From positions 4,243 through 68,242 of the forward strand of contig NZ_OBEN01000007.1 of assembly GCF_900215655.1 (NCBI RefSeq): a DNA stretch of 64,000 bases. Reading direction: 5' to 3'. Shown here in pieces: positions 17,445 through 28,471 of the stretch. Numbering within the stretch: the stretch's first letter is position 1; each line of letters begins with the position of its first letter. A program made the position numbers and the translations under genes. The notes under the pieces are model-generated. The model worked only from the letters and a program-made list of their open reading frames with translations, was not told the DNA's origin and searched no databases. Origin of the DNA: Hydrogenobacter hydrogenophilus (GTDB lineage: Bacteria; Aquificota; Aquificia; Aquificales; Aquificaceae).

Positions 17445-18091
17445 GTGATAAGGTAAGGATAAAGATAATCTCTTTAAGAGAGGAGGAAAACATAGAAAAG
17501 CTCGTTGAAGCCTTAGAAAACCTTGGAGTAAGCATATCAGAATTTTTCAGGTCCGTAAGTGCAGGTAAGCCTTTTGTTTTTGAGGCAGAAAGAGAAGCAT
17601 ACAGAAGATGGAAAAATACTCTTGACAAGCTTTGCTACTACCAAGAAGAACCCCATGTAGAAAGCTTATCCCCTTTAGGTTTTACCGCAGTGGCTTTGTT
17701 GGATACTTTTTTCGTTTTTTCACTCTCTGAATGGTTTTCAAAAAGTTTAAACTTGGAAGGTGTAGCATCTGGGTTTTTCGCATCTCAGATGCTTTTGTGG
17801 TCCTTTATCTCCATCTTTAAGCTCTTTATTGCCTTCCTTTTGTACGCAGGGTTTGGACAGAATCTTGAGACAACACCCGTGGGATACCTTTTGAAGATAA
17901 GGGTAAGCAACAAAGATACAAAAGTATTTATTTCCTTTATGCTCATACCCATAGCAGGCATTTTGCTGGTTAGCTCGCCTTTCGGAAGTTTTGCAAAGCT
18001 TTTTGGCTTATTTCTCTTTGCCTTCTTTGTAGGTGGCTGTCTTTCTGGATTACTAACTTCTCATTACCGATTGCGTATAGAAAGAGCATAA
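17441..18091 (+). CDS. Polytopic membrane protein, hypothetical (last gene of the pilMNOPQ operon)
   Basis: ATGA overlap with the pilQ stop. C-terminal half has 4 predicted TM helices. Confidence 0.4.
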   Translation: MSDKVRIKIISLREEENIEKLVEALENLGVSISEFFRSVSAGKPFVFEAEREAYRRWKNTLDKLCYYQEEPHVESLSPLGFTAVALLDTFFVFSLSEWFSKSLNLEGVASGFFASQMLLWSFISIFKLFIAFLLYAGFGQNLETTPVGYLLKIRVSNKDTKVFISFMLIPIAGILLVSSPFGSFAKLFGLFLFAFFVGGCLSGLLTSHYRLRIERA

Positions 18092-19227
18092 AGGGGTAAA
18101 AAGCATAAATTTAGGAAAAATATGTAAAACATGTACCACCAAACACTCCCAAAAGGGAGGATTAAAAATCCTGTGTAATAAACAAAAAGATGCAAATAAG
18201 GCAACCAGAGCATAATACCTAAAGCGGTAAGGAAATAAATGAAGACCAATGTTAAAGTTAAAAAGAACGCTGTAAAAAGATAAAAAGGCAGGTAAGTAAA
18301 AGCTGGAAGGAACTTTTCAGAGAACAGAAACACAAAAAGATATTTACCTACAAAGATTAAAGAAACTTCAAAAAATATAAATGCGGAAAACACCAAAAAC
18401 AGTACTCTTTTTAGAAAATTTATCATTAGCTTTCCCTTCTGTGCGTACATTACGAATTTGGGAAAGAACACAGTCATAAATGTTAGAATAAGCCATACGA
18501 ACACCTTACCTACCAAGGACACTGAGGCATAAAGCCCTGCAACAGAAGGTTCAAAAATGCGTCTTATAAAAAGATCGTCTGCATACACAAAAAAGCCTAC
18601 AGGGGAGGTAAAAAGAGAGGCTTTAATAAGACCCAAAAGGGATACTCTTTTGGGTTTTGTAAAAAACACTCCGTTTACACCAAAAAGCATACTAAGAGCG
18701 GAAAAAGTGCTAACGATGAACGAGAAGAGCACACCAATAATCCCTAAATTTGCTAAGAAGACCACGGTCAGGAGCCTTACGCTCTGTTCAAAAACCACGG
18801 AAAGAGCAAGCAGGCTAAACCTTTCTAATGATTGAAGATAAGCTCTTTCTATGACAAGCATCTGTTGAAGAAACCACACACCGGCTACTGCCCAAAAATA
18901 CTGAGCCTTTGATATCCTTAAAAAATCTTTTATAGGCTCAGCAAATATTATTCCAAGTATAAAAATAAAAAATCCCAGGAATAAACCTAAAAATCTCATA
19001 TAAGAAAGTGCACTTTTCGTTTCTTGCCAATTCCTTAGTAGTTCTTTAACCACGGGAGTAGCGAGTAGGTTTATGAAGTTTCCTACGCTTAGCATCAGGG
19101 CATAAATAACCATAAACTCACCGTATCCATGCACTCCCAAATGCCTACTTACAAAAAAGTGAAAGACATAGCCTACAGCGTTGGCATACAAAAAGGCAAA
19201 GCTTACAAAAGAAAGATTTTTTATCAT
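18064..19227 (-). CDS. Polysaccharide/oligosaccharide flippase (Wzx/MOP-like)
   Basis: About 12 predicted TM helices and roughly 390 aa. Start taken at ATG 19227, which forms an ATGA overlap with the upstream GT4 stop. Confidence 0.5.
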   Translation of the reverse strand: MIKNLSFVSFAFLYANAVGYVFHFFVSRHLGVHGYGEFMVIYALMLSVGNFINLLATPVVKELLRNWQETKSALSYMRFLGLFLGFFIFILGIIFAEPIKDFLRISKAQYFWAVAGVWFLQQMLVIERAYLQSLERFSLLALSVVFEQSVRLLTVVFLANLGIIGVLFSFIVSTFSALSMLFGVNGVFFTKPKRVSLLGLIKASLFTSPVGFFVYADDLFIRRIFEPSVAGLYASVSLVGKVFVWLILTFMTVFFPKFVMYAQKGKLMINFLKRVLFLVFSAFIFFEVSLIFVGKYLFVFLFSEKFLPAFTYLPFYLFTAFFLTLTLVFIYFLTALGIMLWLPYLHLFVYYTGFLILPFGSVWWYMFYIFFLNLCFLPLYALSIRNR

Positions 19228-20282
19228 GCTAAACTCTTTATATACTCCTCGTAGCGCTCGGATATCTTGTCCCAAGTGTGTTCTTTGGCAAACTCTACGC
19301 CTTTTTTGCCCATCTCAAGCACCAGATCATCTCTTTCGTACAAGAACTTTATTTTTTCCGTAAGGTCCTTAGGGTCATCTTTGCGAAAGCTAACACCAAA
19401 CCCTGCCTGCACCACATAAGAGAACACGGGAATGTCGCTAACAATCACAGGTTTTCCGCAGGACGCAGACTCAAGAGCTACTATCCCCTGTCCTTCGTAC
19501 CTTGAAGGCATGACTAAAAATTTTGAACCTTTGATGAAATTAACCTTTTCCTCTCCCGTTAGTCTTCCCAAATACTCCATATTTTTACAACCATCTACCA
19601 TTTTTAAAAACTTCTCTCTGTCTTTTCCATCACCAGCTATCTTAAATTTTATGTGTTTTAACTCCTTTATAGCCTTTGCTAAAAGATCCAAGCCTTTTTG
19701 AGTTATATCAAGCCTGCCAAGGTAAGCAACATAATGTCCCAACTCAAAACCATTCTCAACTTTATCAACACCGCTGGGTATTACCTGAGCTTTGATCTTG
19801 TAAGCTCTGTTTAAAAATTCAGAAAGGGAAATTATGTGTTTGTATCTTTTTGGGTAAAACCTTTCCACTAAGAAAAAGGGTAATCCAAGAAGGAAATACT
19901 TTTTTAAGATGTTTATCCCTTCGTAGTTTTGGAGTTGGAGAACCACAGGCTTTTTATCTTGATACCTGTATGCGAAAATGGGATTCCAAGGTGCAAAGTC
20001 TTCTACTATTAGGTCGTAATCTTTGTAATGTTTGCCCAAAAAACTTTTGGCTCTTAAAGCGTAAGAGAAGGTACTAATAATATAGTTTTTGTCAGAACCT
20101 AAAAACAAAAACTTTATGCTTTCTTTTTCGCCTTCTTGAGCCTTTGGATAATTTCCGCTTACCACTGTTATTTGATAGCCTTTTTTGGCAAGCCTTTTGT
20201 ATATTTCAAAAGCTCTTACCGCTCCACCGCCACCTACCCAAGGGTTATTTATGTGATCGTAGATGAAGTGAATTATCCTCAT
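19224..20282 (-). CDS. Glycosyltransferase family 4 (GT-B)
   Basis: EGQGIVALESASCGKPVIVSD (EX7E region). Start at ATG 20282 directly after the methyltransferase stop. Confidence 0.8.
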   Translation of the reverse strand: MRIIHFIYDHINNPWVGGGGAVRAFEIYKRLAKKGYQITVVSGNYPKAQEGEKESIKFLFLGSDKNYIISTFSYALRAKSFLGKHYKDYDLIVEDFAPWNPIFAYRYQDKKPVVLQLQNYEGINILKKYFLLGLPFFLVERFYPKRYKHIISLSEFLNRAYKIKAQVIPSGVDKVENGFELGHYVAYLGRLDITQKGLDLLAKAIKELKHIKFKIAGDGKDREKFLKMVDGCKNMEYLGRLTGEEKVNFIKGSKFLVMPSRYEGQGIVALESASCGKPVIVSDIPVFSYVVQAGFGVSFRKDDPKDLTEKIKFLYERDDLVLEMGKKGVEFAKEHTWDKISERYEEYIKSLA

Positions 20283-21013
20283 GGTTTTTTCGCTATTATA
20301 TAAACGAATCTTCCAAATATTTCGTAGGGTATAAAGGAAAAATCGTTGGCTTTGGGTGTAAGAAGCTGAAGCAGAGGATAGATGGGTAGAAGAGGCAGGT
20401 ATTCCCACCATCTTAAAACCTTCACTTGATGGACCTCAAAACCGCACATCTTGGCAAGGATCTTTAGACTCTTTTTGGTCCAAGGTCTTATGTGAGTTGG
20501 GTCTGAGTAGAAGTTATAGCTTCCTTGGCAGAAAAGGGAAGTGTAATAGTCAGTAGCACAGTAGAAGTATCCGTTTTTTTTCAGGACCCTGAGGCTTTCC
20601 AAGAAGAGCTTTTGAGGATTTCTTAGGTGTTCCAGCACAAAGGTAGAAATGACCACATCAAAGCTTTCTTCCTCAAAGGGAAGATTCTGCTCCTCTATGT
20701 CGCATGCAGAAAAGCTAACATAATCTGGCAGTAAAGAGTTTTTCTCAAGGTCTACTCCAAAGAGCTCTGCAGAAGGGTTGAGGAACTTCCTTATAAAGTA
20801 TAGTGCCTCTCCCGTTCCACAGCCTACATCAAGGATCTTAGAAGCGGTCTTTATGTTGGGTATACTGCTTAACTTCTTCACGGATATGTTGGTAAGCCTG
20901 TAGTAGAGCTTTTCTGTGATGGCGTACTTTTCAAAAAGCTTCCTAACAAAGGGTCTTAGTCCTATCTCTCTAATGCTTCCAAGATACTCCTGATAACCTT
21001 TATGTTTTTGCAA
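20279..21013 (-). CDS. Class I SAM-dependent methyltransferase
   Basis: Motif I VLDVGCGTGE, motif II/III spacing. Confidence 0.75.
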   Translation of the reverse strand: MQKHKGYQEYLGSIREIGLRPFVRKLFEKYAITEKLYYRLTNISVKKLSSIPNIKTASKILDVGCGTGEALYFIRKFLNPSAELFGVDLEKNSLLPDYVSFSACDIEEQNLPFEEESFDVVISTFVLEHLRNPQKLFLESLRVLKKNGYFYCATDYYTSLFCQGSYNFYSDPTHIRPWTKKSLKILAKMCGFEVHQVKVLRWWEYLPLLPIYPLLQLLTPKANDFSFIPYEIFGRFVYIIAKKP

Positions 21014-21707
21014 GCTTAAGCCTCCACACCATAATTGCCGCTTCTAAGGCTATTTTTTTACTCATCTTTGAAGCACCACTGTTTCTTTCGTAAAATATTA
21101 TGGGTATCTCGCAAACTCTAAAGCCAAGTTTGTAAGTCTTGTAGAACATCTCTATTTGGAAAGCATAACCGTTGGACTTTATAGCCTTTAGGTCTATTTT
21201 CTCTAGTACCTCCCTTTTGTAGCATCTGTATCCACTGGTGATGTCTGTAAACTGTCTTACACCAAGTATAGTAGTTGCATAGAAGTTTGCAAACTTAGAT
21301 ATGAGAAGCCTTTTAAAGTCCCAACCTACTACACTTATAGTCCCTTTTGTGTATCTTGAACCAATCACAAGGTCGCACCCTTCTTCTACCTTTTCTACAA
21401 ACCTTGGTATGTCTGAAGGATCGTGAGAGAGGTCCGCATCCATCTCAAAGAAAAGATCGTAGTCTCTCTCAAGTCCCCACTTGAAGCCCTCCACATACGC
21501 AGTACCAAGTCCAAGCTTTGTATGTCTTTTTAGGAGATTCACTCTCTGGGTCTTCTCCATCCACCTTTGGACTCTCTCCTGTGTGCCATCCTGGGAATTG
21601 TCATCTACCACGAGCACATCTACAAAAGGATGTTGTAAAACCCTCTCAAGTACCTTATCTATGTTGTCCGCTTCGTTATAAGTGGGTAGGACTACCAGCG
21701 CTCTCAT
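21000..21707 (-). CDS. GT2 polyprenyl-phosphate sugar synthase (Dpm1/GtrB/ArnC-like)
   Basis: VVLPTYNEADNI, VVDDNSQDGT, DADLSHDP (the DxD region). Start taken at ATG 21707, which makes an ATGA overlap with the upstream GT4 stop. Confidence 0.8.
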   Translation of the reverse strand: MRALVVLPTYNEADNIDKVLERVLQHPFVDVLVVDDNSQDGTQERVQRWMEKTQRVNLLKRHTKLGLGTAYVEGFKWGLERDYDLFFEMDADLSHDPSDIPRFVEKVEEGCDLVIGSRYTKGTISVVGWDFKRLLISKFANFYATTILGVRQFTDITSGYRCYKREVLEKIDLKAIKSNGYAFQIEMFYKTYKLGFRVCEIPIIFYERNSGASKMSKKIALEAAIMVWRLKLAKT

Positions 21708-22786
21708 AACAGTCCTCTGTCTTTGAGATAGCTTATAAACTCTGCTTTTGTCTTCTCCCAAGAGAAGTTCCTTGCCCACTCCACAGCGTTTGTGGAGAGT
21801 CTCTTGTAGAGCCCCTTATCTTCCCAAAGCAAGAGGGTTTTTTGTGCCATCTCTTGGTAATCCTTTACCAAAAACCCTGTTGTGCCATCTTTTATGCTGT
21901 CTTTTAAGCCTTGGACCCTGTAGCCTATGGCTGGTGTGCCCACTGCATTGGCTTGGATCACCACCTGAGCCCACCCTTCCCTTATGCTTGGAACCAAAAG
22001 CACATGAGACTCCCTTAGAAGTTGGTACTTTTCTTGACTTTCTATGTACCCTGTAAATACCACACCCTCTACATTTCCGTATTTGTTCTGCAGATAGGGT
22101 CTAAGGGGACCATCGCCTATGACATAAATCTTCGCATCCTTTACCCTTTGCTTGACTATCAGGTAAGCTTTTAGAGCGTCTTCTGGATTTTTGGTTTTTT
22201 TGAGCCTTCCTATGTAAGCCAAAGTCAAACTTTTACTTTTTTCTGAAATACTGGGTTCTATATCAAGACCGTTGTGTATGATGGTGATGTCCCTAAAGCC
22301 TATGCTTCTGAGGTCTTCTGCAGTGGATTCAGACACGGTTATAGTGGGCTTTTTTCTGTATAGTCTCAGAAGGAGTTTCTCCAAGAGTCTGAAAGGATAG
22401 CCCAAAGGTCCCAGCTCTGCGGTCCAAAACTCTTCATAAAGCTGGTGTATAAGCAGGATGGAGTTTTTCAAAAAGAAGGTCGTGTATCCCAAGCCATTGA
22501 ACTCATCCACTATGAGCCAGTCCTTAGGCTTTTTAAGAGCGTACAGAAAGCCATAAAGGTGTGTGGTAAGCTCGTTGCCTTTCCTGATAAACCTTATACC
22601 TTCAAGATGCTCTTCTGCGGATAGTCCTTTGGGTCTTGAGGCAAACCACTCCACCTGCGCGCCTACGCTAATTAGCGCCTTTGCCAGCTCCATTGTATAG
22701 ACCTCCGCCCCACCCTTTTCTGGATGCTTTATGCACCTCCTATTGAGAAAAAGCACCTTCATGCCTTGTAGAGGCTCAGCACCCAC
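21704..22786 (-). CDS. Glycosyltransferase family 4 (GT-B)
   Basis: 360 aa. C-terminal GT1 domain with the E...E motif (PSIREGWAQVVIQANAVGTPAIG). Confidence 0.75.
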   Translation of the reverse strand: MGAEPLQGMKVLFLNRRCIKHPEKGGAEVYTMELAKALISVGAQVEWFASRPKGLSAEEHLEGIRFIRKGNELTTHLYGFLYALKKPKDWLIVDEFNGLGYTTFFLKNSILLIHQLYEEFWTAELGPLGYPFRLLEKLLLRLYRKKPTITVSESTAEDLRSIGFRDITIIHNGLDIEPSISEKSKSLTLAYIGRLKKTKNPEDALKAYLIVKQRVKDAKIYVIGDGPLRPYLQNKYGNVEGVVFTGYIESQEKYQLLRESHVLLVPSIREGWAQVVIQANAVGTPAIGYRVQGLKDSIKDGTTGFLVKDYQEMAQKTLLLWEDKGLYKRLSTNAVEWARNFSWEKTKAEFISYLKDRGLL

Positions 22787-23346
22787 AAAGAAAAGAAGAC
22801 CACAAAGGATAACAAACCTACCCTAAAAGATCTATAAATCATAAAAACTACAGACCCTATCCATCCCAAAAGGGACAGCACCACAAGAATGCTCCAAAAG
22901 ACAGAAGGATACGGGTCATAATCCTGCATGGCTTTTAGGTCTTTGTATATCTGCTGATACTTGTCCTCTGGTGGAAGGTTGTTCTGTATGTAGAGCTCCG
23001 TCTTTAGGAGCACTATGTCTTTGTCTAACTTTTGGAGTTTTTCCGAGTATGGAGTGTATATGCCTCTTATTTGGTATATAGCAGACCTTAGCGTCTCATA
23101 GCAAAAAAGCCTGTGCTCCTTTTCCTTGAGCTTGGGACATAGCTTTTCTATTTTCTCCACCGCTTCTTGGTTGTAAGGACTAAAGGGTACATAATTTAGA
23201 AGTGTCCTCTCGTACATGGATATAGCCATAAGGGGATTTCCAGATACCAAAAGAGCATCACCTTCTCTAATAAGTCTTTTCTGGTTTTGAAAAAGCACAA
23301 ACACAGCGCTCATAACCAAGACAAAGATAACCAACAGCCACTTCAT
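22759..23346 (-). CDS. Membrane protein, hypothetical (N-terminal signal-anchor, two C-terminal TM helices)
   Basis: ATGA overlap with the upstream GT-C gene stop. No recognisable motif. Confidence 0.4.
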   Translation of the reverse strand: MKWLLVIFVLVMSAVFVLFQNQKRLIREGDALLVSGNPLMAISMYERTLLNYVPFSPYNQEAVEKIEKLCPKLKEKEHRLFCYETLRSAIYQIRGIYTPYSEKLQKLDKDIVLLKTELYIQNNLPPEDKYQQIYKDLKAMQDYDPYPSVFWSILVVLSLLGWIGSVVFMIYRSFRVGLLSFVVFFSLWVLSLYKA

Positions 23347-25244
23347 CTTAAGCTTCCCCTTGCCTCCGCAGTGTAAGGGTAATAGATAAACCTCTCCAAT
23401 TTGTTATTTTGCATCACCCTGTTATAAAGGTCTATAAGATTCTTGTTCTCTGGTCCTACCTTTATCTCAAACTCCGCACCGGGATGGCTCTTATCTCCCG
23501 GTCTGTTTACGGACACTCTAAAGGTGTTTCCCATATATCTCACGTCATAATTCAAAAGTCCAGTTTGTTTGCTGACTTCCACTCTGGAAATAAGGTAAGC
23601 AAACATAGGCAGAGAGTAGTTGCAAAGAGTTGCAGAAAACCTATCATCAGTCATGTAGTTGGCGCAGTCTAACATGCTAAGGTTTTCAAGTTCCTCGTAG
23701 CGCAATAACCTCTTTGTCCAAACATTCTCAGGAACTTGTAGGTTTTTGGGAATCAAGGCAAAGGAAAACACCCAAAACTCGTTTTTGAAAAACTCAGCCA
23801 AAGGATTGGGAGGTTTTAAAAACACTATACTGTAAAGCCTTCCAGATGAAGCAAACTCTGCAAAATTACCCTTAAAGAAGCTGGAAAATAGGTAACTGTC
23901 TTTGTAAAGCTTTTGGGGATAGCACCCTCTGGGTATGAGGGTGTTGCTATCTGGTGACAGGTAGTCGTTGGAGCAGATATCCTGCCTGTAGCGTGCCAAG
24001 TACTTAAAGTACCAAGAGCCAAAGGTATGGTTATCTCCGTAAGTTAGGTACAGGCTTCCTACTGGAAGGGAAGAGATGATGCTCTTGGAAATAGAATAAG
24101 CCACATAGTTGTCATTAAAGTTCTGGTCTATAAGCCTATCAAAGACACCCACCAAAGCGTATACAGAAAGAGATGCAGGAAGTGCTACTTTCAAAAGCTC
24201 CGTTCTTTTAAGAAGATCCACCACCCAATAGAGCCCAAGACCACAGAAAAGAGCAAATCCAAAGAGTGCAGGTAGGAAGTACTGATGCGCACCTATGTAC
24301 CATCCATCAGACTTTATGAGAGGAAAAGAGAAGGTCATCTTAGCAAGCAGGAGGGAGTAAGCAAGGAAGAAAAGGCTAAGGTAGATGCCTACCCTTCTTG
24401 AGAACCTAAAAGCCCACAAGATACCCAAAAGGAAAAGGGGAAAAGCGTAAATAGGAAAGTTAGTCTTAAAGATAATAAAAAGGTTTTTCAGCGCGTAGTA
24501 GTAGCCCATTGGGTCTGCAAACAGACCCTTTGCCACCTCCGGAGATGACCCCTGCTGGTAGGGTTTTCTAAGAAACACTTCCCAAAAGCTATTTAGGTCA
24601 TAAACTGGATTGGGTACGAACACCCTGTTACCCCTGATGAACATGTGCAGGTTTGCCCAAAAGCCAAGCAAGAAAAAGAAGATGCTAAAGGGTAGGTTTT
24701 TTAGGAATGGTCTAAAATAAAGTATGGAAACATACACAAGGGGTATAACCACAAGAACAGCTGTGTGGTGATTGGCAAGAGAAAGCCCCAACAAGAAGCT
24801 TCCAAGGAAACTAAGCCTTCTGTCATAACCTTCAAGAATGACTTTTAGACCAAAATACAAAAGCAGGGATATTATAAAAAGATTAAGCATGTAGAACTTC
24901 ATAACTACAGACTGTCCCCAGAAGGAGTAAGAGACACCCAAAAGAGCCACAGGGAACAAAGAAACTAAAGCGTTTCCCGTCAAAGTGTGCACAAGTCTAT
25001 AAAGCATATAAAGAGACAGTAAAGAAAACACTACAGATGCTAAAACCATTCTGAAGGGAACGCTTCCTAAGGGTAAAAAGCTAAAAAGCTTTAAAACTTC
25101 CATGTACAGAGGATATCCAGAAGGGTGTGCAAGACCTAAGGTTATAGCTCCTACCGCAAACTCTCCTGCATCCCCCGTATTTATAACCTTGCTGGAAGAG
25201 AAGGTATAAAAAAAGGCAAAAAGAGACAAAAGAAGGAATATCAC
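23343..25244 (-). CDS. GT-C-type polytopic membrane glycosyltransferase (PMT/ArnT/DUF2723-like), candidate pilin O-glycosyltransferase
   Basis: 633 aa. About 11-12 TM helices in the first ~370 aa and a ~260 aa soluble C-terminal domain. GDAGEF acidic motif in the first extracytoplasmic loop. GTG start overlaps the pilA2 stop (GTGA). Confidence 0.65.
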   Translation of the reverse strand: MIFLLLSLFAFFYTFSSSKVINTGDAGEFAVGAITLGLAHPSGYPLYMEVLKLFSFLPLGSVPFRMVLASVVFSLLSLYMLYRLVHTLTGNALVSLFPVALLGVSYSFWGQSVVMKFYMLNLFIISLLLYFGLKVILEGYDRRLSFLGSFLLGLSLANHHTAVLVVIPLVYVSILYFRPFLKNLPFSIFFFLLGFWANLHMFIRGNRVFVPNPVYDLNSFWEVFLRKPYQQGSSPEVAKGLFADPMGYYYALKNLFIIFKTNFPIYAFPLFLLGILWAFRFSRRVGIYLSLFFLAYSLLLAKMTFSFPLIKSDGWYIGAHQYFLPALFGFALFCGLGLYWVVDLLKRTELLKVALPASLSVYALVGVFDRLIDQNFNDNYVAYSISKSIISSLPVGSLYLTYGDNHTFGSWYFKYLARYRQDICSNDYLSPDSNTLIPRGCYPQKLYKDSYLFSSFFKGNFAEFASSGRLYSIVFLKPPNPLAEFFKNEFWVFSFALIPKNLQVPENVWTKRLLRYEELENLSMLDCANYMTDDRFSATLCNYSLPMFAYLISRVEVSKQTGLLNYDVRYMGNTFRVSVNRPGDKSHPGAEFEIKVGPENKNLIDLYNRVMQNNKLERFIYYPYTAEARGSLR

Positions 25245-25636
25245 CTGACGCTACACCTCAGGTTGTTTTCCGAAAACTCGCACACCGCTGTATAGTTGTT
25301 TATTCCTGCAAGCATACCTCTTACAGTACCACTTGCTATACCGTTTGGCGTGCATGTATAGCTTCCATCAAGCAAAACCTCAACATTTCCCATAGCGGTA
25401 TTGACATTGGAGCAATTAGGAAGACCATTGAGGCTGTAAGGTGTAGGAGCTTCTACAAACTTAGAGACGCAATTCGCCATGGCATCTTTGGCACATGCTG
25501 AAGCTATAGAAAGGGCAAAGTTAGCCACCTTAGATTTGTCGCGATACATAAGATAAGAAGGAATAGCCATAGAAGCCAGTATAACCAAAAGAGCTATAAC
25601 TATCAGAAGCTCTACAAGAGTAAAGCCTTTTTTCAT
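25241..25636 (-). CDS. Type IVa pilin (second pilin paralog)
   Basis: MKKG|FTLVELLIVIALLVILASMAIPSY class III signal with Glu at +5. C-terminal disulfide pair (AVCEF...RCSVR). The ORF-track TTG start at 25654 lies inside the upstream stem-loop, so the ATG at 25636 is preferred. Confidence 0.8.
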   Translation of the reverse strand: MKKGFTLVELLIVIALLVILASMAIPSYLMYRDKSKVANFALSIASACAKDAMANCVSKFVEAPTPYSLNGLPNCSNVNTAMGNVEVLLDGSYTCTPNGIASGTVRGMLAGINNYTAVCEFSENNLRCSVR

Positions 25637-25643
25637 GGCAAAA

Positions 25644-25661
25644 GCCCCCCACAAAGGGGGC
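25644..25661 (-). terminator. GC-rich stem-loop (GCCCCC-6 nt loop-GGGGGC) between the two pilin genes, followed on the - strand by TTTTGCCATG. Partial terminator/attenuator.
   Basis: Read directly: 25644 GCCCCCC ACAAA GGGGGC 25661. A T4 tract and the pilA2 ATG follow immediately on the - strand. Confidence 0.55.
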
Positions 25662-25679
25662 TAAGAGCTTCAGCTTAGA

Positions 25680-26120
25680 TTAACCCTGTATGGTGCACTT
25701 GACGCTTTGTTTGTCGTAAGTGCAAACCGCAGTGTAGTCAGTAGCGGTATCAAGTGTAGCAGTCGCACTGCTGTTAGATAAAGTACCGTCGGGATTGCAG
25801 GTACCGGGAGTAACTGACAGCGTTACTTGTCCACCACCAGTTGTTATGGTCGTTGTAGAACAGTTAGCCAGCTGAGTTGTTGGAGGTGCACCGCTTGCGT
25901 TTTCTGTACACCACGCTACCATGTCTAACATACAACCTCTGGCTATGGGTTCTGCGTAGGAGCTTACTTTGGCTTTCCTTTGGTACTTTAGGTACTGCGG
26001 TATTGCCAAGGATGCCAGTATGGCTATGATGGCTATGACGATGAGTAGCTCAATGAGGGTGAAACCCCTTGAGCTGTTCATCCTCGCGGACCTGCTCGTG
26101 GCTTGATAGAGCTGTCTCAT
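25680..26120 (-). CDS. pilA: Type IVa major pilin with Ser/Thr-rich C-terminal region
   Basis: ...RG|[24 protein letters not shown] prepilin signal. C-terminal [19 protein letters not shown]...[14 protein letters not shown] and a disulfide pair (AVCTY...KCTIQG). Start 26120 has an AAGGAGGG SD, giving a 19-aa leader. The alternative ATG at 26081 gives a 6-aa leader. Confidence 0.8.
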
Positions 26121-26200
26121 GGCTAAACCCTCCTTTAAAGGTTATTAAGTTTTAATGTTAACGCAGGTTGCGTATAATGGCAAGGTTCTTCACGAAAACT

Positions 26201-26431
26201 TCACTTATCCTCCTTGTGTGGAACTTCAAAAACCTTATAAAGAAGCTGTCTTATCTCTCTTATGTCTTGTTCCAGTCTGTCTAGTCTCCTGTCCACATCC
26301 TGCCGTAAGTCATCTATACGCTTATTGATATCATCAAAGCGTTTGTTTTGCACATTTGCAATGATCCCCATTAGCACCACATTACCCCCTATTATGCTCG
26401 CTATGATGGTGATAACTTGTATCCATTCCAT
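26201..26431 (-). CDS. Small signal-anchored hendecad-repeat coiled-coil protein, paralog 4 of 4
   Basis: 76 aa. MEWIQ plus a 22-aa hydrophobic helix, NKR(F/I)DD..RIDDLRQDVDRRLDRLEQDI modules, invariant tail REIRQLLYKVFEVPHKEDK. Confidence 0.6.
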   Translation of the reverse strand: MEWIQVITIIASIIGGNVVLMGIIANVQNKRFDDINKRIDDLRQDVDRRLDRLEQDIREIRQLLYKVFEVPHKEDK

Positions 26432-26683
26432 TCACTTTTCCTCCTTGTGTGGCACTTCAAACACCTTATAAAGAAGCTGGCGTATCTCTCTTATGTCTTG
26501 TTCTATCTTATCAAGCCTTCTGTCTATTTCTTGCTCCATCTTGTCCAGTCTTCTATCTATGTCCTGCCTTAGGTCGTCAATCCTTCTGTTTGTGTCATCA
26601 ATCCTTTTGTTAAGTAAGACTACTACTATACTTATAATTCCCACAAAGCTTGCAATGATGGTTATGGTTTGTGTCCAATCCAT
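26432..26683 (-). CDS. Small signal-anchored hendecad-repeat coiled-coil protein, paralog 3 of 4
   Basis: 83 aa. Same architecture with one extra IDRRLDK(M/I)EQ(E/D) module. Confidence 0.6.
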   Translation of the reverse strand: MDWTQTITIIASFVGIISIVVVLLNKRIDDTNRRIDDLRQDIDRRLDKMEQEIDRRLDKIEQDIREIRQLLYKVFEVPHKEEK

Positions 26684-26911
26684 TCACTTATCCTCTTTGT
26701 GAGGTATTTCAAACACCTTGTAAAGTAGCTGTCTTATTTCTCTTAGTTCCTGTCTTATCTCTTTCATGTCTTCCCTTAGGTCATCTATGCGCCTGTTTGT
26801 GTCCTCTATACGCTTATTTGTGTCCTCAATGCGTTTGTTCAAAAGGTTAGCCACTATTCCAATAACAGCTGTTAAGCTGGCTATCACAGTAAGAGCCTGT
26901 ATCCATTCCAT
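26684..26911 (-). CDS. Small signal-anchored hendecad-repeat coiled-coil protein, paralog 2 of 4
   Basis: 75 aa. Same architecture with a variant repeat (RIEDTNKRIEDTNRRIDDLREDMKEIRQELREIRQLL). Confidence 0.6.
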   Translation of the reverse strand: MEWIQALTVIASLTAVIGIVANLLNKRIEDTNKRIEDTNRRIDDLREDMKEIRQELREIRQLLYKVFEIPHKEDK

Positions 26912-27109
26912 TTACTTGTCCTCCTTATGAGGCACTTCAAATATCTTATAAAGAAGCTGTCTTATCTCTCTTATGTCTTGCTCCAATCTATCCAGTCTCC
27001 TGTCCATGTCTTGTCTAAGGTCGTCTATGCGTTTGTTTAACAACTGAGCAACTATTCCAATAACTGCAGTGAGGCTGGCTATTACTGTAAGGGCTTGTAC
27101 CCATTCCAT
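26912..27109 (-). CDS. Small signal-anchored hendecad-repeat coiled-coil protein, paralog 1 of 4 (shortest)
   Basis: 65 aa. First gene of the array. No SD. Preceded by a -35/-10 pair with the -10 ending 8 nt before the ATG. Confidence 0.6.
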   Translation of the reverse strand: MEWVQALTVIASLTAVIGIVAQLLNKRIDDLRQDMDRRLDRLEQDIREIRQLLYKIFEVPHKEDK

Positions 27110-27117
27110 AGCGTTAA

Positions 27118-27146
27118 ATATATCTTAGCTTTAAATCTTTGACAAA
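27118..27146 (-). promoter_or_regulatory. Putative sigma70-type promoter for the paralog array (-35 TTGTCA, 17-nt spacer, -10 TATATT). The -10 ends 8 nt before the ATG, so the mRNA would be leaderless.
   Basis: On the - strand: TTGTCA aagatttaaagctaaga TATATT taacgct ATG. Confidence 0.4.
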
Positions 27147-27168
27147 CGAGAGTGTATAACATATACTT
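27140..27168 (+). promoter_or_regulatory. Putative divergent promoter for rseP (-35 TTGACA, 17-nt spacer, -10 TATACT, 7 nt to ATG). Its -35 overlaps the -35 of the opposite promoter.
   Basis: TTGACA 27140-27145, TATACT 27163-27168, ATG 27176. Confidence 0.4.
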
Positions 27169-27175
27169 ATGACCC

Positions 27176-28471
27176 ATGGAGACACTTTTAGCTTTTTTGA
27201 TACTCATAGGTGTGCTTGTGTGGTTTCATGAGTTTGGACACTTTCTTTTTGCCAAACTTTTCGGTGTAAAGGTAGAGGTTTTTTCTATAGGTTTTGGTCC
27301 AGTGGTTTTAAGTAAGAAGTGGGGAGAGACTGAGTATAGGGTATCTGCCATACCTTTGGGTGGGTTTGTCAAGCTCTACGGCGAAGAAGAAAACTCAGAT
27401 GACCCAAGAGCTTTTTCTTCAAAGAAGAATTATCAAAAGATACTTATAGCCAGTGGAGGACCTCTTTTTAATTTTATATTGGCGGTTCTTTTGTTTGCTC
27501 TCATCTTTTCTGTAGGAAAACCTACACCTTCCTATGTACTTGAAAAACCTCTTGTAGGACATGTGGTGGAAAACAGCCCAGCACAAAAGCTTGGACTAAA
27601 AGAAGGAGATCTTTTATTAGAGATAAACGGTAAGAAGGTAAACACATGGAAGGACTTTGAAAATGTTGTGCTTGAGAGTGTATTGAAAAAGAACTGGAAC
27701 ATAGTGGTACTCAGAAACGGTCAGGTACTGCAACTTTCTGGAAGTGTGGAGCTTTCTAAGGCTCACTCTTTTGGTGTTGAGCCTTACATTAAACCTGTCA
27801 TAGGCAAGGTTCTTCCAAAAAGCCCAGCGGAGCAAGTAGGTATAAAAGAAGGAGATGAAATATTAGAAATAAACGGCAAAAAGGTTAAAAGTTGGTACGA
27901 TGCGGTAGCCCTCATAAGAAGTACAAAGGGGGAGATTATAAAGCTTAAGATCAAAAGGGACGGACAGGTTCTTGAGAAGCATGTGATACCTATGGTTGAT
28001 AAAAGGACGGGCACTCCTCTTTTGGGTGTATCACCGCGCATAGAACTCATAAGCGTAAAAGAGCCATTAGGTGAAGCTGTCTTGGAAGCTTTTAAGAAAA
28101 CACAGGATTTAACAGTCTTGTCCATTAAAGCTCTTTGGGGTTTAATTACCGGTGGTCTTTCCCTAAAAACGCTTGGTGGTCCTATAGCTATTGCTCAGTT
28201 GGCTGGAGAATCTGCCCAGCAGGGGCTCATAGCTTTTCTTGGTATGATGGCTTTTATATCCGTTCAGCTTGCAGTTTTCAATCTCATTCCTCTTCCTGTA
28301 CTTGACGGTGGCTTAATACTCCTCTTTCTTATAGAATCTATTAGGAGAAGACCTCTTTCGCAGAAGTTCAAAGAAAACTGGCAAAAAGTAGGCTTTGCCA
28401 TCATTATAGCTCTTTCAGCTTTTGTTATACTCAACGATATAGTGAGACTTATAACCGGTAGTGGTGTTTAA
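27176..28471 (+). CDS. rseP: Regulated intramembrane proteolysis site-2 protease RseP
   Basis: HEFGHFLFA zinc motif in TM1, two PDZ domains, C-terminal LDGG motif. Confidence 0.9.

Follow-up and report, generated by a model that had tools for sequence, protein, structure and literature searches.

The closest described counterparts of g1–g4, four small genes that form a tandem array at positions 26,201 to 27,109 of a 64,000-nucleotide stretch of Hydrogenobacter hydrogenophilus DNA (contig NZ_OBEN01000007.1; the whole stretch is hereafter called the window), are short or membrane-anchored coiled-coil proteins. PilN, PilO, GspL and GspM are bitopic inner-membrane proteins of pilus and secretion loci, with a coiled coil beside the transmembrane (TM) helix; they are N-in/C-out, approximately 180–250 aa long, and carry a periplasmic coiled coil and a ferredoxin-like domain. 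In YhcB (DUF1043) and DUF948-type proteins a cytoplasmic coiled coil extends from an N-terminal TM helix, Rz i-spanins, XhlA and small holins are small proteins combining a TM helix with a coiled coil, and in Lpp and tetrabrachion-type proteins a short single-helix coiled coil has a length that could set a distance. The nearest analogue among them is the releasin gp25 of phage Mu (DUF2730), 99 aa long and with a predicted N-out/C-in topology: four residues face the periplasm, an N-terminal TM domain and a basic pair at the junction follow, and the remainder is a helical cytoplasmic domain. It is required to release the N-in/C-out signal-arrest-release (SAR) endolysin from the membrane (PMC9239132).

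The products of g1–g4 belong to none of these groups; they are members of a genuine family of small coiled-coil proteins tethered to the membrane, which is well delimited and hitherto undescribed. Our preferred reading, to which we assign a probability of roughly 0.4, is that the array is an operon of old paralogues encoding small bitopic inner-membrane proteins that act as cytoplasmic-face accessory stalks of pilus or surface-structure machinery. The structural part of this reading is far more secure than the part concerning type IV pili (T4P), the link to which is suggestive and not universal.

Array, protein design and conservation

On the minus strand, g1–g4 are contiguous open reading frames (ORFs) in one reading frame, with junctions TAAATG or TGAATG and zero intergenic bases, as seen in both the ORF list and the sequence (Table 1). 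The four head-to-tail genes of 65, 75, 83 and 76 aa in the preliminary description were thus recovered, and they lie on the minus strand. A DNA repeat search returned four copies with start-to-start distances of 231, 252 and 228 nt. Pairwise identities were 67–77% at the nucleotide level and 59–79% at the protein level, and the earlier figure of more than 70% nucleotide identity holds for five of the six pairs and fails for the remaining one. The family hidden Markov model matched g1 at E=5e-32, g3 is 100% identical to a H. hydrogenophilus protein (P0001), and the subtype of g4 recurs in P0041, P0049, P0050, P0055 and others.

All elements appear in a fixed order: a stub M-(E/D)-W-x-Q, a TM helix of 19–23 residues, a junction L-N-K-R-(I/F)-D-D, a coiled coil, a near-invariant cap (D/E)IREIRQLLYK and a tail (V/I)PHKE(D/E)K. 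The coiled coil is built from heptads (RIDDTNK, RIDDLRQ) and hendecads (DxDRRLDxxEQ; core spacing 4-3-4), the latter periodicity being that of right-handed or straight bundles. The N-terminus previously given as MEW(I/V)Q is present in three genes, the 83-aa gene having MDWTQ, and the tail REIRQLLYK(V/I)FE(V/I)PHKE(D/E)K is invariant in all four, as claimed. The module D(I/M/V)DRRLD(K/R)(M/L/I)EQ occurs once in g1, once in g4 and twice in g3, so the description of 11-residue modules in differing number applies to these three genes, while g2 has heptads instead. In an AlphaFold2 model, g3 formed a single helix from residue 3 to 76 (mean predicted local distance difference test score 86.9) with the last seven residues disordered, and each protein is predicted to be one uninterrupted helix. 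Alignments and model bear out the proposal that a TM helix leads into a 7/11-residue coiled coil with a variable number of modules. Neither Pfam nor inspection of the sequence found a prepilin motif or N_methyl match (PF07963) in the four proteins, and MEW/MDW runs straight into the hydrophobic helix, which bears out the earlier statement that they are not pilins or pseudopilins.

Among 171 distinct sequences, the stalk from junction to cap took only the lengths 9, 16, 20, 23, 27, 30, 31, 34, 37, 38, 41, 44, 45, 48 and 63 residues. As these lengths step by 3–4 residues, only register-keeping units change and the hydrophobic stripe is continuous from the membrane to the cap. Computed at 0.15 nm per residue, the predicted helix past the junction measures approximately 5.1, 6.6, 7.8 and 6.1 nm for g1 to g4, respectively. 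In the alignment, conservation of the cap extends from its core to its surface (R, E, R, Q, Y, K), while the surface of the stalk varies, a pattern that marks the cap as a putative partner-binding site.

Selection was assessed by Nei-Gojobori analysis using orthologues from Hydrogenobacter sp. RSW1 (locus L008) and H. thermophilus TK-6 (locus L001). Orthologue pairs shared 89–96% protein identity, with a proportion of synonymous differences (pS) of 0.56–0.83 and a ratio of nonsynonymous to synonymous rates (dN/dS) of 0.014–0.053. The orthologues of g1 were 89–92% identical with saturated synonymous sites, g2 and its RSW1 counterpart (L008_g2) were 95% identical with a dN/dS of 0.034, and g4 and L008_g3 were 96% identical with a pS of 0.685 and a dN/dS of 0.014. 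The paralogue pairs within the window gave saturated pS values of 0.60–0.76 and dN/dS values of 0.08–0.16. Reading frames were conserved in at least 190 distinct homologues, far beyond chance, and all indels in the family were in-frame and in phase with the coiled coil. The genes g1–g4 are real protein-coding genes under strong purifying selection.

Every paralogue was found to have its own orthologue in other species. Given these separate orthologues and the saturated synonymous sites, the DNA identity of about 70% reflects protein constraint and not recent duplication, and on this comparison g1–g4 are old paralogues, each conserved separately. Unequal recombination, earlier read from the differing module numbers, is accordingly not upheld for the paralogues; it survives only for the (RIEDTNK)n tract of g2, which acts as an active variable-number tandem repeat. 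This tract is present in 1 (P0056), 2 (the window), 3 (L039), 4 (L038) or 5 (L008) copies among orthologues and, judged from these sequences, is an in-frame repeat with genuine number variation between close strains. Counted as whole genes, family members number 1–4 per genome and at least 7 on one metagenome contig of the Thermocrinis type (L029), so that both gene counts (1 to at least 7) and module counts (1–5 heptads in g2) vary among related genomes. Thermocrinis-type contigs with 5 to at least 7 tandem genes and ATGA overlaps were seen at L029 1-1528, L033 5632-7190 and L037 66-1114, and the T. jamiesonii genome holds three family genes, copy number differing strongly between strains.

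Topology was scored on 118 Aquificaceae and 89 distant members, with the C-flank defined as the 15 residues after the TM helix. The N-flank of about five residues held on average 0.01–0.03 K/R and about one acidic residue; the C-flank held 3.7–4.8 K/R and exceeded the N-flank in 100% of the 118 and of the 89 members. Under the positive-inside rule, this asymmetry predicts an N-out/C-in topology with a cytoplasmic coiled coil and about five periplasmic residues, the opposite of the earlier proposal, in which an N-in signal anchor carries the coiled coil outside the cytoplasm.

Relation to described families and distribution

Scans of the four proteins against Pfam and NCBIfam gave nothing past the curated thresholds, only sub-threshold matches to coiled coils and TM segments. 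A profile search of the PDB found nothing beyond GCN4 or designed coiled coils (E≥0.03), none of 50,697 phage records matched in tblastn, and the PADLOC matches (LmuB, CARF-HEPN; E≥6e-5) were at the coiled-coil level inside long proteins and lacked any system context. These results agree with the preliminary description, in which the proteins could not be placed in any characterised family. The recurrent PHROG match for all four proteins was phrog_1009 (function unknown; E=2e-7 to 2e-3), with weaker matches to phrog_739 (E=6e-4 to 6e-3), phrog_1193 (0.007–0.05) and phrog_1296 (2e-4); the weaker matches are to spanin, holin and 'hemolysin' families. The literature on Hydrogenobacter T4P, on hendecad membrane anchors and on the locus tags Hydth_1645-1648 yielded nothing relevant.

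Two candidate families named earlier failed their profile checks on the window proteins. DUF1640/CCDC90-like proteins (PF07798) gave no match to them, and two distant relatives scored 16–19 bits against a gathering threshold of 33.5; XhlA (PF10779) was not reported by Pfam at E≤10, and the match to the PHROG 'hemolysin' family phrog_1193 covered the coiled-coil part only. The suggestions of a holin/XhlA-like or S-layer-like protein likewise came down to weak matches at the coiled-coil level. An Rz-like i-spanin was rejected on the opposite predicted topology, the lack of an adjacent lipoprotein ORF and PHROG matches at only E=6e-4 to 6e-3. Unlike spanins, XhlA and holins, the family forms a chromosomal array under strong purifying selection, with neither an o-spanin partner nor a prophage context.

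PilN, PilO and GspM were also rejected, as the only match was NF040576 (GspM) at E=0.13–0.14 and the window proteins are 65–83 aa long with a single helix; moreover, real PilN/PilO-like genes are present separately in Hydrogenobacter sp. Uz 6-8 (locus L006). A few homologues had been named YhcB or YoxC automatically by JGI, but the family is shorter than YhcB and DUF948 proteins, varies in repeat number and has conserved termini that those proteins lack; in Pfam, DUF948 reached 17 of the 37.2 bits required, and DUF1043 was not reported. Lpp is a periplasmic lipoprotein, whereas the present family is TM-anchored, predicted to be cytoplasmic and without sequence relation to it.

The resemblance to Mu gp25 is closer in architecture, with a predicted N-out/C-in topology resting on 0 K/R before the TM helix against 4.5–4.8 after it, an N-flank of five residues and NKR at the junction where gp25 has RR/RK. 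In contrast, gp25 is phage-borne, lies beside an endolysin gene and has neither the 7/11 modules nor the EIRQLLYK cap, while the window genes are chromosomal, arrayed and adjoin pilus genes. Homology to DUF2730 was rejected, as hhalign of two family alignments against a Mu gp25 alignment gave probabilities of 2.2% (A3) and 11.9% (A4), leaving an architectural analogy only. Furthermore, gp25 belongs to phrog_736 and not to phrog_1009, the window proteins match phrog_736 at E=0.02–0.05, and PF10805 was not reported for them at E≤10.

A word-indexed search found 147 homologues, all named 'hypothetical', in Hydrogenobacter, Thermocrinis, Aquifex, unclassified Aquificaceae and metagenome-assembled genomes (MAGs) of Ca. 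Hydrothermia. An exhaustive profile search gave 1,089 matches at E≤1e-3, many of them with NKRFDD-type modules alone. The complete design (M-(D/E)-W-x-Q, TM helix, N-N-(R/K)-R-(I/F)-D-D, modules, (D/E)(I/L)REIRxxL and a short basic tail) is present in a coherent subset belonging to other phyla, which includes Ca. Scalindua, Deltaproteobacteria and Ca. Poribacteria as well as high-GC sequences. Aligned by hhalign, the Aquificaceae and other-phyla sets matched with a probability of 99.8% (E=2.8e-30), while a Pfam scan of ten distant relatives gave nothing above cut-offs. We define the family as M[DE]WxQ - TM - N[KR]R[IF]DD - 7/11 modules - [DE][IL]REIRxxL, 60–140 aa, with no other domain; the window proteins have all five elements in order. 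Among the 89 distant members, Q5 is present in 90% and D/E2 in 92%; these members were chosen for a W-containing N-terminus, and W3 is thus not independent evidence.

Small membrane proteins are under-annotated, and this multi-phylum family is without a Pfam or NCBIfam model, a solved structure or a literature record. It follows a clean design rule, with both ends conserved, the coiled-coil length quantised and very strong purifying selection.

Genomic contexts and possible function

Approximately 55 loci from genomes, metagenomes and contigs were sorted into ten context classes; these were used because T4P clusters reach past the cut-off distance, which makes a count of near and far pilin-like ORFs uninformative. 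In five of the ten Aquificaceae classes, family genes lie directly beside T4P genes, in keeping with the genomic link to pilus genes drawn earlier. Class A (Hydrogenobacter) has rseP divergent from an array of 3–4 genes, with or without a restriction-modification (R-M) insert, followed by two pilins and a TMEM260-like glycosyltransferase gene, and class B (Thermocrinis) has RNase R divergent from an array of 2–5 genes, PilY1 and minor pilins. In class C (Hydrogenobacter sp. Uz 6-8, L006), pilM, pilN-like, pilO and secretin genes are followed after a 17-nt gap by a family gene with a truncated copy and two pilins. Family genes of class D (a Tibetan Aquificota MAG, L010/L040) are divergent from a GspH/FimU-type minor-pilin operon, and those of class E (L034) are convergent with a minor-pilin operon. 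The adjoining T4P sets thus comprise major pilins, PilY1 with minor pilins, pilMNOQ and minor-pilin operons, and arrays adjoin T4P genes more often than singletons do. If a random gene is assumed to have a 5% chance of a T4P neighbour, a rate that we consider generous and that is not a measured one, five such contexts out of ten are very unlikely to arise by chance; only 2 of the approximately 65 window genes are pilin-like.

The remaining classes are a Ca. Hydrothermia type, a Pampinifervens type (carA ... cstA), several Aquifex contexts, MNLTEV singletons, and glycan-biosynthesis genes adjoining a sigma54-dependent response regulator (L063, L064). The closest relatives of g3 were found in this last class (L063 5553-6252, L064 6001-6255), as an array or a singleton among sugar-nucleotide and glycan genes that include a WecA-like family 4 glycosyltransferase (GT4), a DegT aminotransferase and a 914-aa methyltransferase/cytidylyltransferase/aminotransferase fusion, and the adjoining sigma54-dependent regulator is of the NtrC/PilR type. 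The truncated second copy of L006 (7376-7507, between the secretin gene and the pilins) encodes 43 aa and stops after the first modules; it is probably a pseudogene left over from an earlier array. At two unrelated singletons (L011 8225-8593, L014 3126-3488), a conserved, convergent ORF of 120–122 aa overlaps the 3' end of the family gene.

According to the preferred reading, the proteins would insert N-out/C-in and their stalks would project about 5–8 nm into the cytoplasm, where the four lengths would assemble as parallel homo- or hetero-oligomeric coiled coils. The conserved distal cap would dock a cytoplasmic partner, one belonging to the assembly or regulation machinery of a pilus or surface structure at the cytoplasmic face of the membrane; such machinery is the most likely source of a partner because arrays lie beside T4P genes in half of the Aquificaceae contexts. 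The repeated adjacency is a lead to a new pilus assembly or regulation factor in deep-branching thermophiles.

Several observations weigh against this. Half of the ten classes have no T4P gene within 6–8 kb, and the five that do may not be independent, being perhaps fragments of one ancestral cluster. In the window, pilA has its own conserved promoter and candidate operator, and R-M genes separate the array from pilA in L008, L038 and L039. Seven look-ups outside Aquificaceae (four distinct contexts) showed solitary genes in unrelated neighbourhoods without T4P genes, so the family is not tied to pili by nature; it is broader than T4P, and its link to pili may be a specialisation of one lineage. 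Finally, topology, oligomeric state and partner are all predictions. One of the distant members, 109 aa long, is located between bamA (Omp85/POTRA) and skp-lpxD-fabZ/lpxC-lpxA and downstream of tamB (L028 5001-5330; GCA_020349005.1), in an outer-membrane biogenesis neighbourhood.

Some of these observations feed the main rival, in which the family would consist of general membrane or envelope proteins with a housekeeping or stress role, placed beside pilin and glycosylation genes only because surface-structure islands are variable and prone to recombination. The solitary genes of many phyla in unrelated contexts (one of them between bamA and skp), the Aquificaceae contexts lacking T4P genes, the R-M insertions and the separate pilA promoter all fit it, and we regard it as a real possibility, albeit at less than even odds. 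It accounts less readily for the adjacency to four kinds of T4P gene sets in five classes, which is hard to obtain by chance with only two pilin-like genes among those of the window, and for the L006 gene, which starts 17 nt after the secretin gene inside a pilMNOQ-pilin string. Should the proteins be unrelated to pili, their value would be more modest, as a new well-delimited family for annotation databases.

An N-in signal anchor carrying an extracytoplasmic coiled coil, which would act as a periplasmic spacer or as a strut associated with pili or an S-layer, is unlikely. In its favour, a role as ruler or spacer would fit coiled coils of variable length, an unrelated group of proteins has similar NKRFDD-type modules that are presumably periplasmic (P0154, P0164, P0182, P0184), and the Rz-like i-spanins matched weakly in PHROG are N-in/C-out. 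Yet every member has essentially no K/R before the TM helix and about 4–5 just after it, no signal peptidase or lipobox motif was found, and a highly charged domain of 40–60 residues would need Sec targeting, for which the uncharged five-residue N-terminus provides nothing. The conserved acidic residue 2 instead suits N-tail translocation driven by the proton-motive force and YidC, as established for the Pf3 coat protein. The unrelated group (P0154, P0164, P0182, P0184, P0190, P0229), which shares NKRFDD/MNKRFD 7/11 modules, has an N-terminal signal peptide, a C-terminal TM helix followed by WDRRT and a conserved ...LRSFGLL end, and its modules would be periplasmic.

We consider it very unlikely that the proteins are releasin-like helpers of membrane extraction or other lysis-type peptides (holin, XhlA or spanin-like); in the releasin-like version, the tethered cytoplasmic coiled coil would help N-in signal-anchor proteins, here the pilins, to leave the bilayer. 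Architecture and predicted topology do match Mu gp25 (PMC9239132), some homologues carry weak precomputed PF10805 matches, and the best PHROG match is the phage family phrog_1009. Set against these are the hhalign values, the membership of gp25 in phrog_736, the unreported PF10805 and the empty search of phage records given above; the array neighbours are rseP, pilins and glycosyltransferases, with no endolysin or prophage context found, and chromosomal conservation under purifying selection speaks against a lysis toxin. A more speculative variant, and a highly improbable one, would make the family a set of cellular functional analogues of phage releasins, whose graded-length coiled coils might aid N-in signal-anchor proteins in leaving or entering the inner membrane during pilus assembly or retraction. 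By this analogy, and with equally low probability, the substrates would be the type IV pilins, the topology mirroring that of SAR endolysins; if true, the array would encode a previously unknown T4P accessory component, and the wider family would do likewise for other signal-anchored substrates.

A non-coding DNA repeat array with fortuitous ORFs, which the head-to-tail copies, each about 230 nt long, and the 21- and 33-nt repeats inside them might bring to mind, is refuted by the dN/dS values and frame conservation and has next to no probability, as frames, starts, stops and motifs are kept in more than 190 distinct sequences despite saturated synonymous sites, every indel is in-frame and in coiled-coil phase, and the array has no Rfam match (the window giving only two tRNAs).

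Expression signals and neighbouring genes

The −10 box of the array (Table 1) ends 7 nt before the ATG of g1, and no Shine-Dalgarno (SD) sequence was found before this gene. L001, L008, L038 and L039 share the conserved element ...TTGTCAAAGAT.TAA.CTAAGATATATTTAACGCT-ATG in nearly unchanged form. Most other lineages have a box of the TATATT type 6–8 nt ahead of the start codon of their first, or single, family gene, and in the Pampinifervens type such a box precedes every array gene. A −10 box close to the start codon without an SD sequence was seen for 11 of 61 window genes, including rseP. As genes with this layout are frequent in this Hydrogenobacter genome, leaderless mRNAs appear common in it, and g1 is probably one of the many operon-leading genes that are leaderless. 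In the 11 genes the −10 box is strong, often a perfect TATAAT, and ends 5–9 nt before the start; examples are located at 27139-27176 (rseP), 7371, 8143, 34743, 45668, 45938 and 52230.

For g2, g3 and g4, an SD sequence (AAGGAGG) sits 8 nt before the ATG, within the H-K-E-(D/E)-K codons of the preceding gene, and such junctions are conserved across loci. This geometry, together with the zero-nt junctions, suggests that the g1–g4 operon is probably translationally coupled; in Thermocrinis, family genes overlap by ATGA. The tail thus seems to be partly under a double constraint, at the protein level and through the ribosome-binding site that it holds for the following cistron. Singletons and last array genes retain it too, so that the SD sequence is not the sole reason for its conservation. 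A protein tail constrained by the ribosome-binding site of the next cistron and a candidate T4P operator (see below) are features of wider interest at this locus.

Table 1. Positions of the array genes, their signals and the adjoining pilin genes in the window.
Feature	Position	Strand	Details
Array promoter-like site TTGTCA-17-TATATT	27145..27117	-	sigma70-like; back-to-back with rseP promoter (27139-27167, +)
g1	27109..26912	-	65 aa; MEWVQ stub, TM residues 6-24, NKR junction; coiled coil of about 34 residues, then EIRQLLYK cap and PHKEDK tail
SD AAGGAGGA for g2	26919..26926	-	inside g1 tail codons H-K-E-D-K
g2	26911..26684	-	75 aa; common design with two RIEDTNK heptads and (E/D)xxEIRQ-type stalk
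21-nt tandem repeat	26780..26827		Tandem Repeats Finder, 2.3 copies; encodes g2 RIEDTNK heptads
SD-like AAAGAGGA for g3	26691..26698	-	inside g2 tail codons
g3	26683..26432	-	83 aa; common design with hendecads DIDRRLDKMEQ and EIDRRLDKIEQ
33-nt tandem repeat	26492..26567		Tandem Repeats Finder, 2.3 copies, 79% match; encodes g3 doubled hendecad
SD AAGGAGGA for g4	26439..26446	-	inside g3 tail codons
g4	26431..26201	-	76 aa; TM IIGGNVVLMGIIANVQ 4 residues longer, one hendecad; last before pilA
GTGAA-N6-GTGAA direct repeat	26204..26189	-	11-bp period; overlaps g4 stop codon
pilA promoter TTGCCA-17-TAACAT	26183..26155	-	conserved; just downstream of GTGAA repeat
Two type IV pilin genes	25241..26120	-	146 aa at 26120..25680; 137 aa at 25654..25241

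The ATG of the first pilin gene (26120) lies exactly 80 nt after the g4 stop, as described before, and the two pilins match Pfam N_methyl at E=1e-9 and 3e-7. No terminator-like site was found between g4 and pilA. The pilA promoter and the GTGAA repeat are kept before pilA in L001, L006, L008 and L038, and in L008 and L038 both are retained even though R-M genes split the array from pilA. Co-transcription of the array with pilA, earlier considered probable, is therefore doubtful: on the promoter and operator sequences, an obligatory common transcript appears unlikely and read-through possible. The inserts between array and pilA (L008 8644-9468, L038 6809-8265, L039 3232-3618) carry a DNA methyltransferase gene, to which that of L038 adds a 221-aa partner, and the array-pilA gap appears to mark an insertion hot-spot.

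The exact motif GTGAA-N6-GTGAA occurs once in the window and nine times in 8 of 62 loci examined: L001 6225-6240, L006 7607-7622 and 11748-11763, L008 9494-9509, L038 8291-8306, L010 6144-6159, L040 5721-5736, L033 7227-7242 and L030 2444-2459. Every occurrence checked adjoins T4P genes, L030 being a short contig with no T4P gene in view, and in Thermocrinis the motif is inverted, between the array and the PilY1 operon. The repeat looks like a candidate operator of a response regulator governing a T4P regulon.

Upstream of the array and divergent from it is the site-2 protease gene rseP. The ORF list around the array contained no embedded or adjacent lipoprotein ORF, and an Rfam scan of the window gave no match other than the two tRNAs. 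After the pilins, the minus strand continues (18064-25244) with genes for a 633-aa TMEM260-like membrane protein of the protein O-mannosyltransferase type, a 195-aa protein of no family, a GT4, a family 2 glycosyltransferase, a class I methyltransferase, a further GT4 and a 403-aa protein of no family. The run probably represents an island for pilin glycosylation, and H. thermophilus TK-6 (L001) has a syntenic counterpart.

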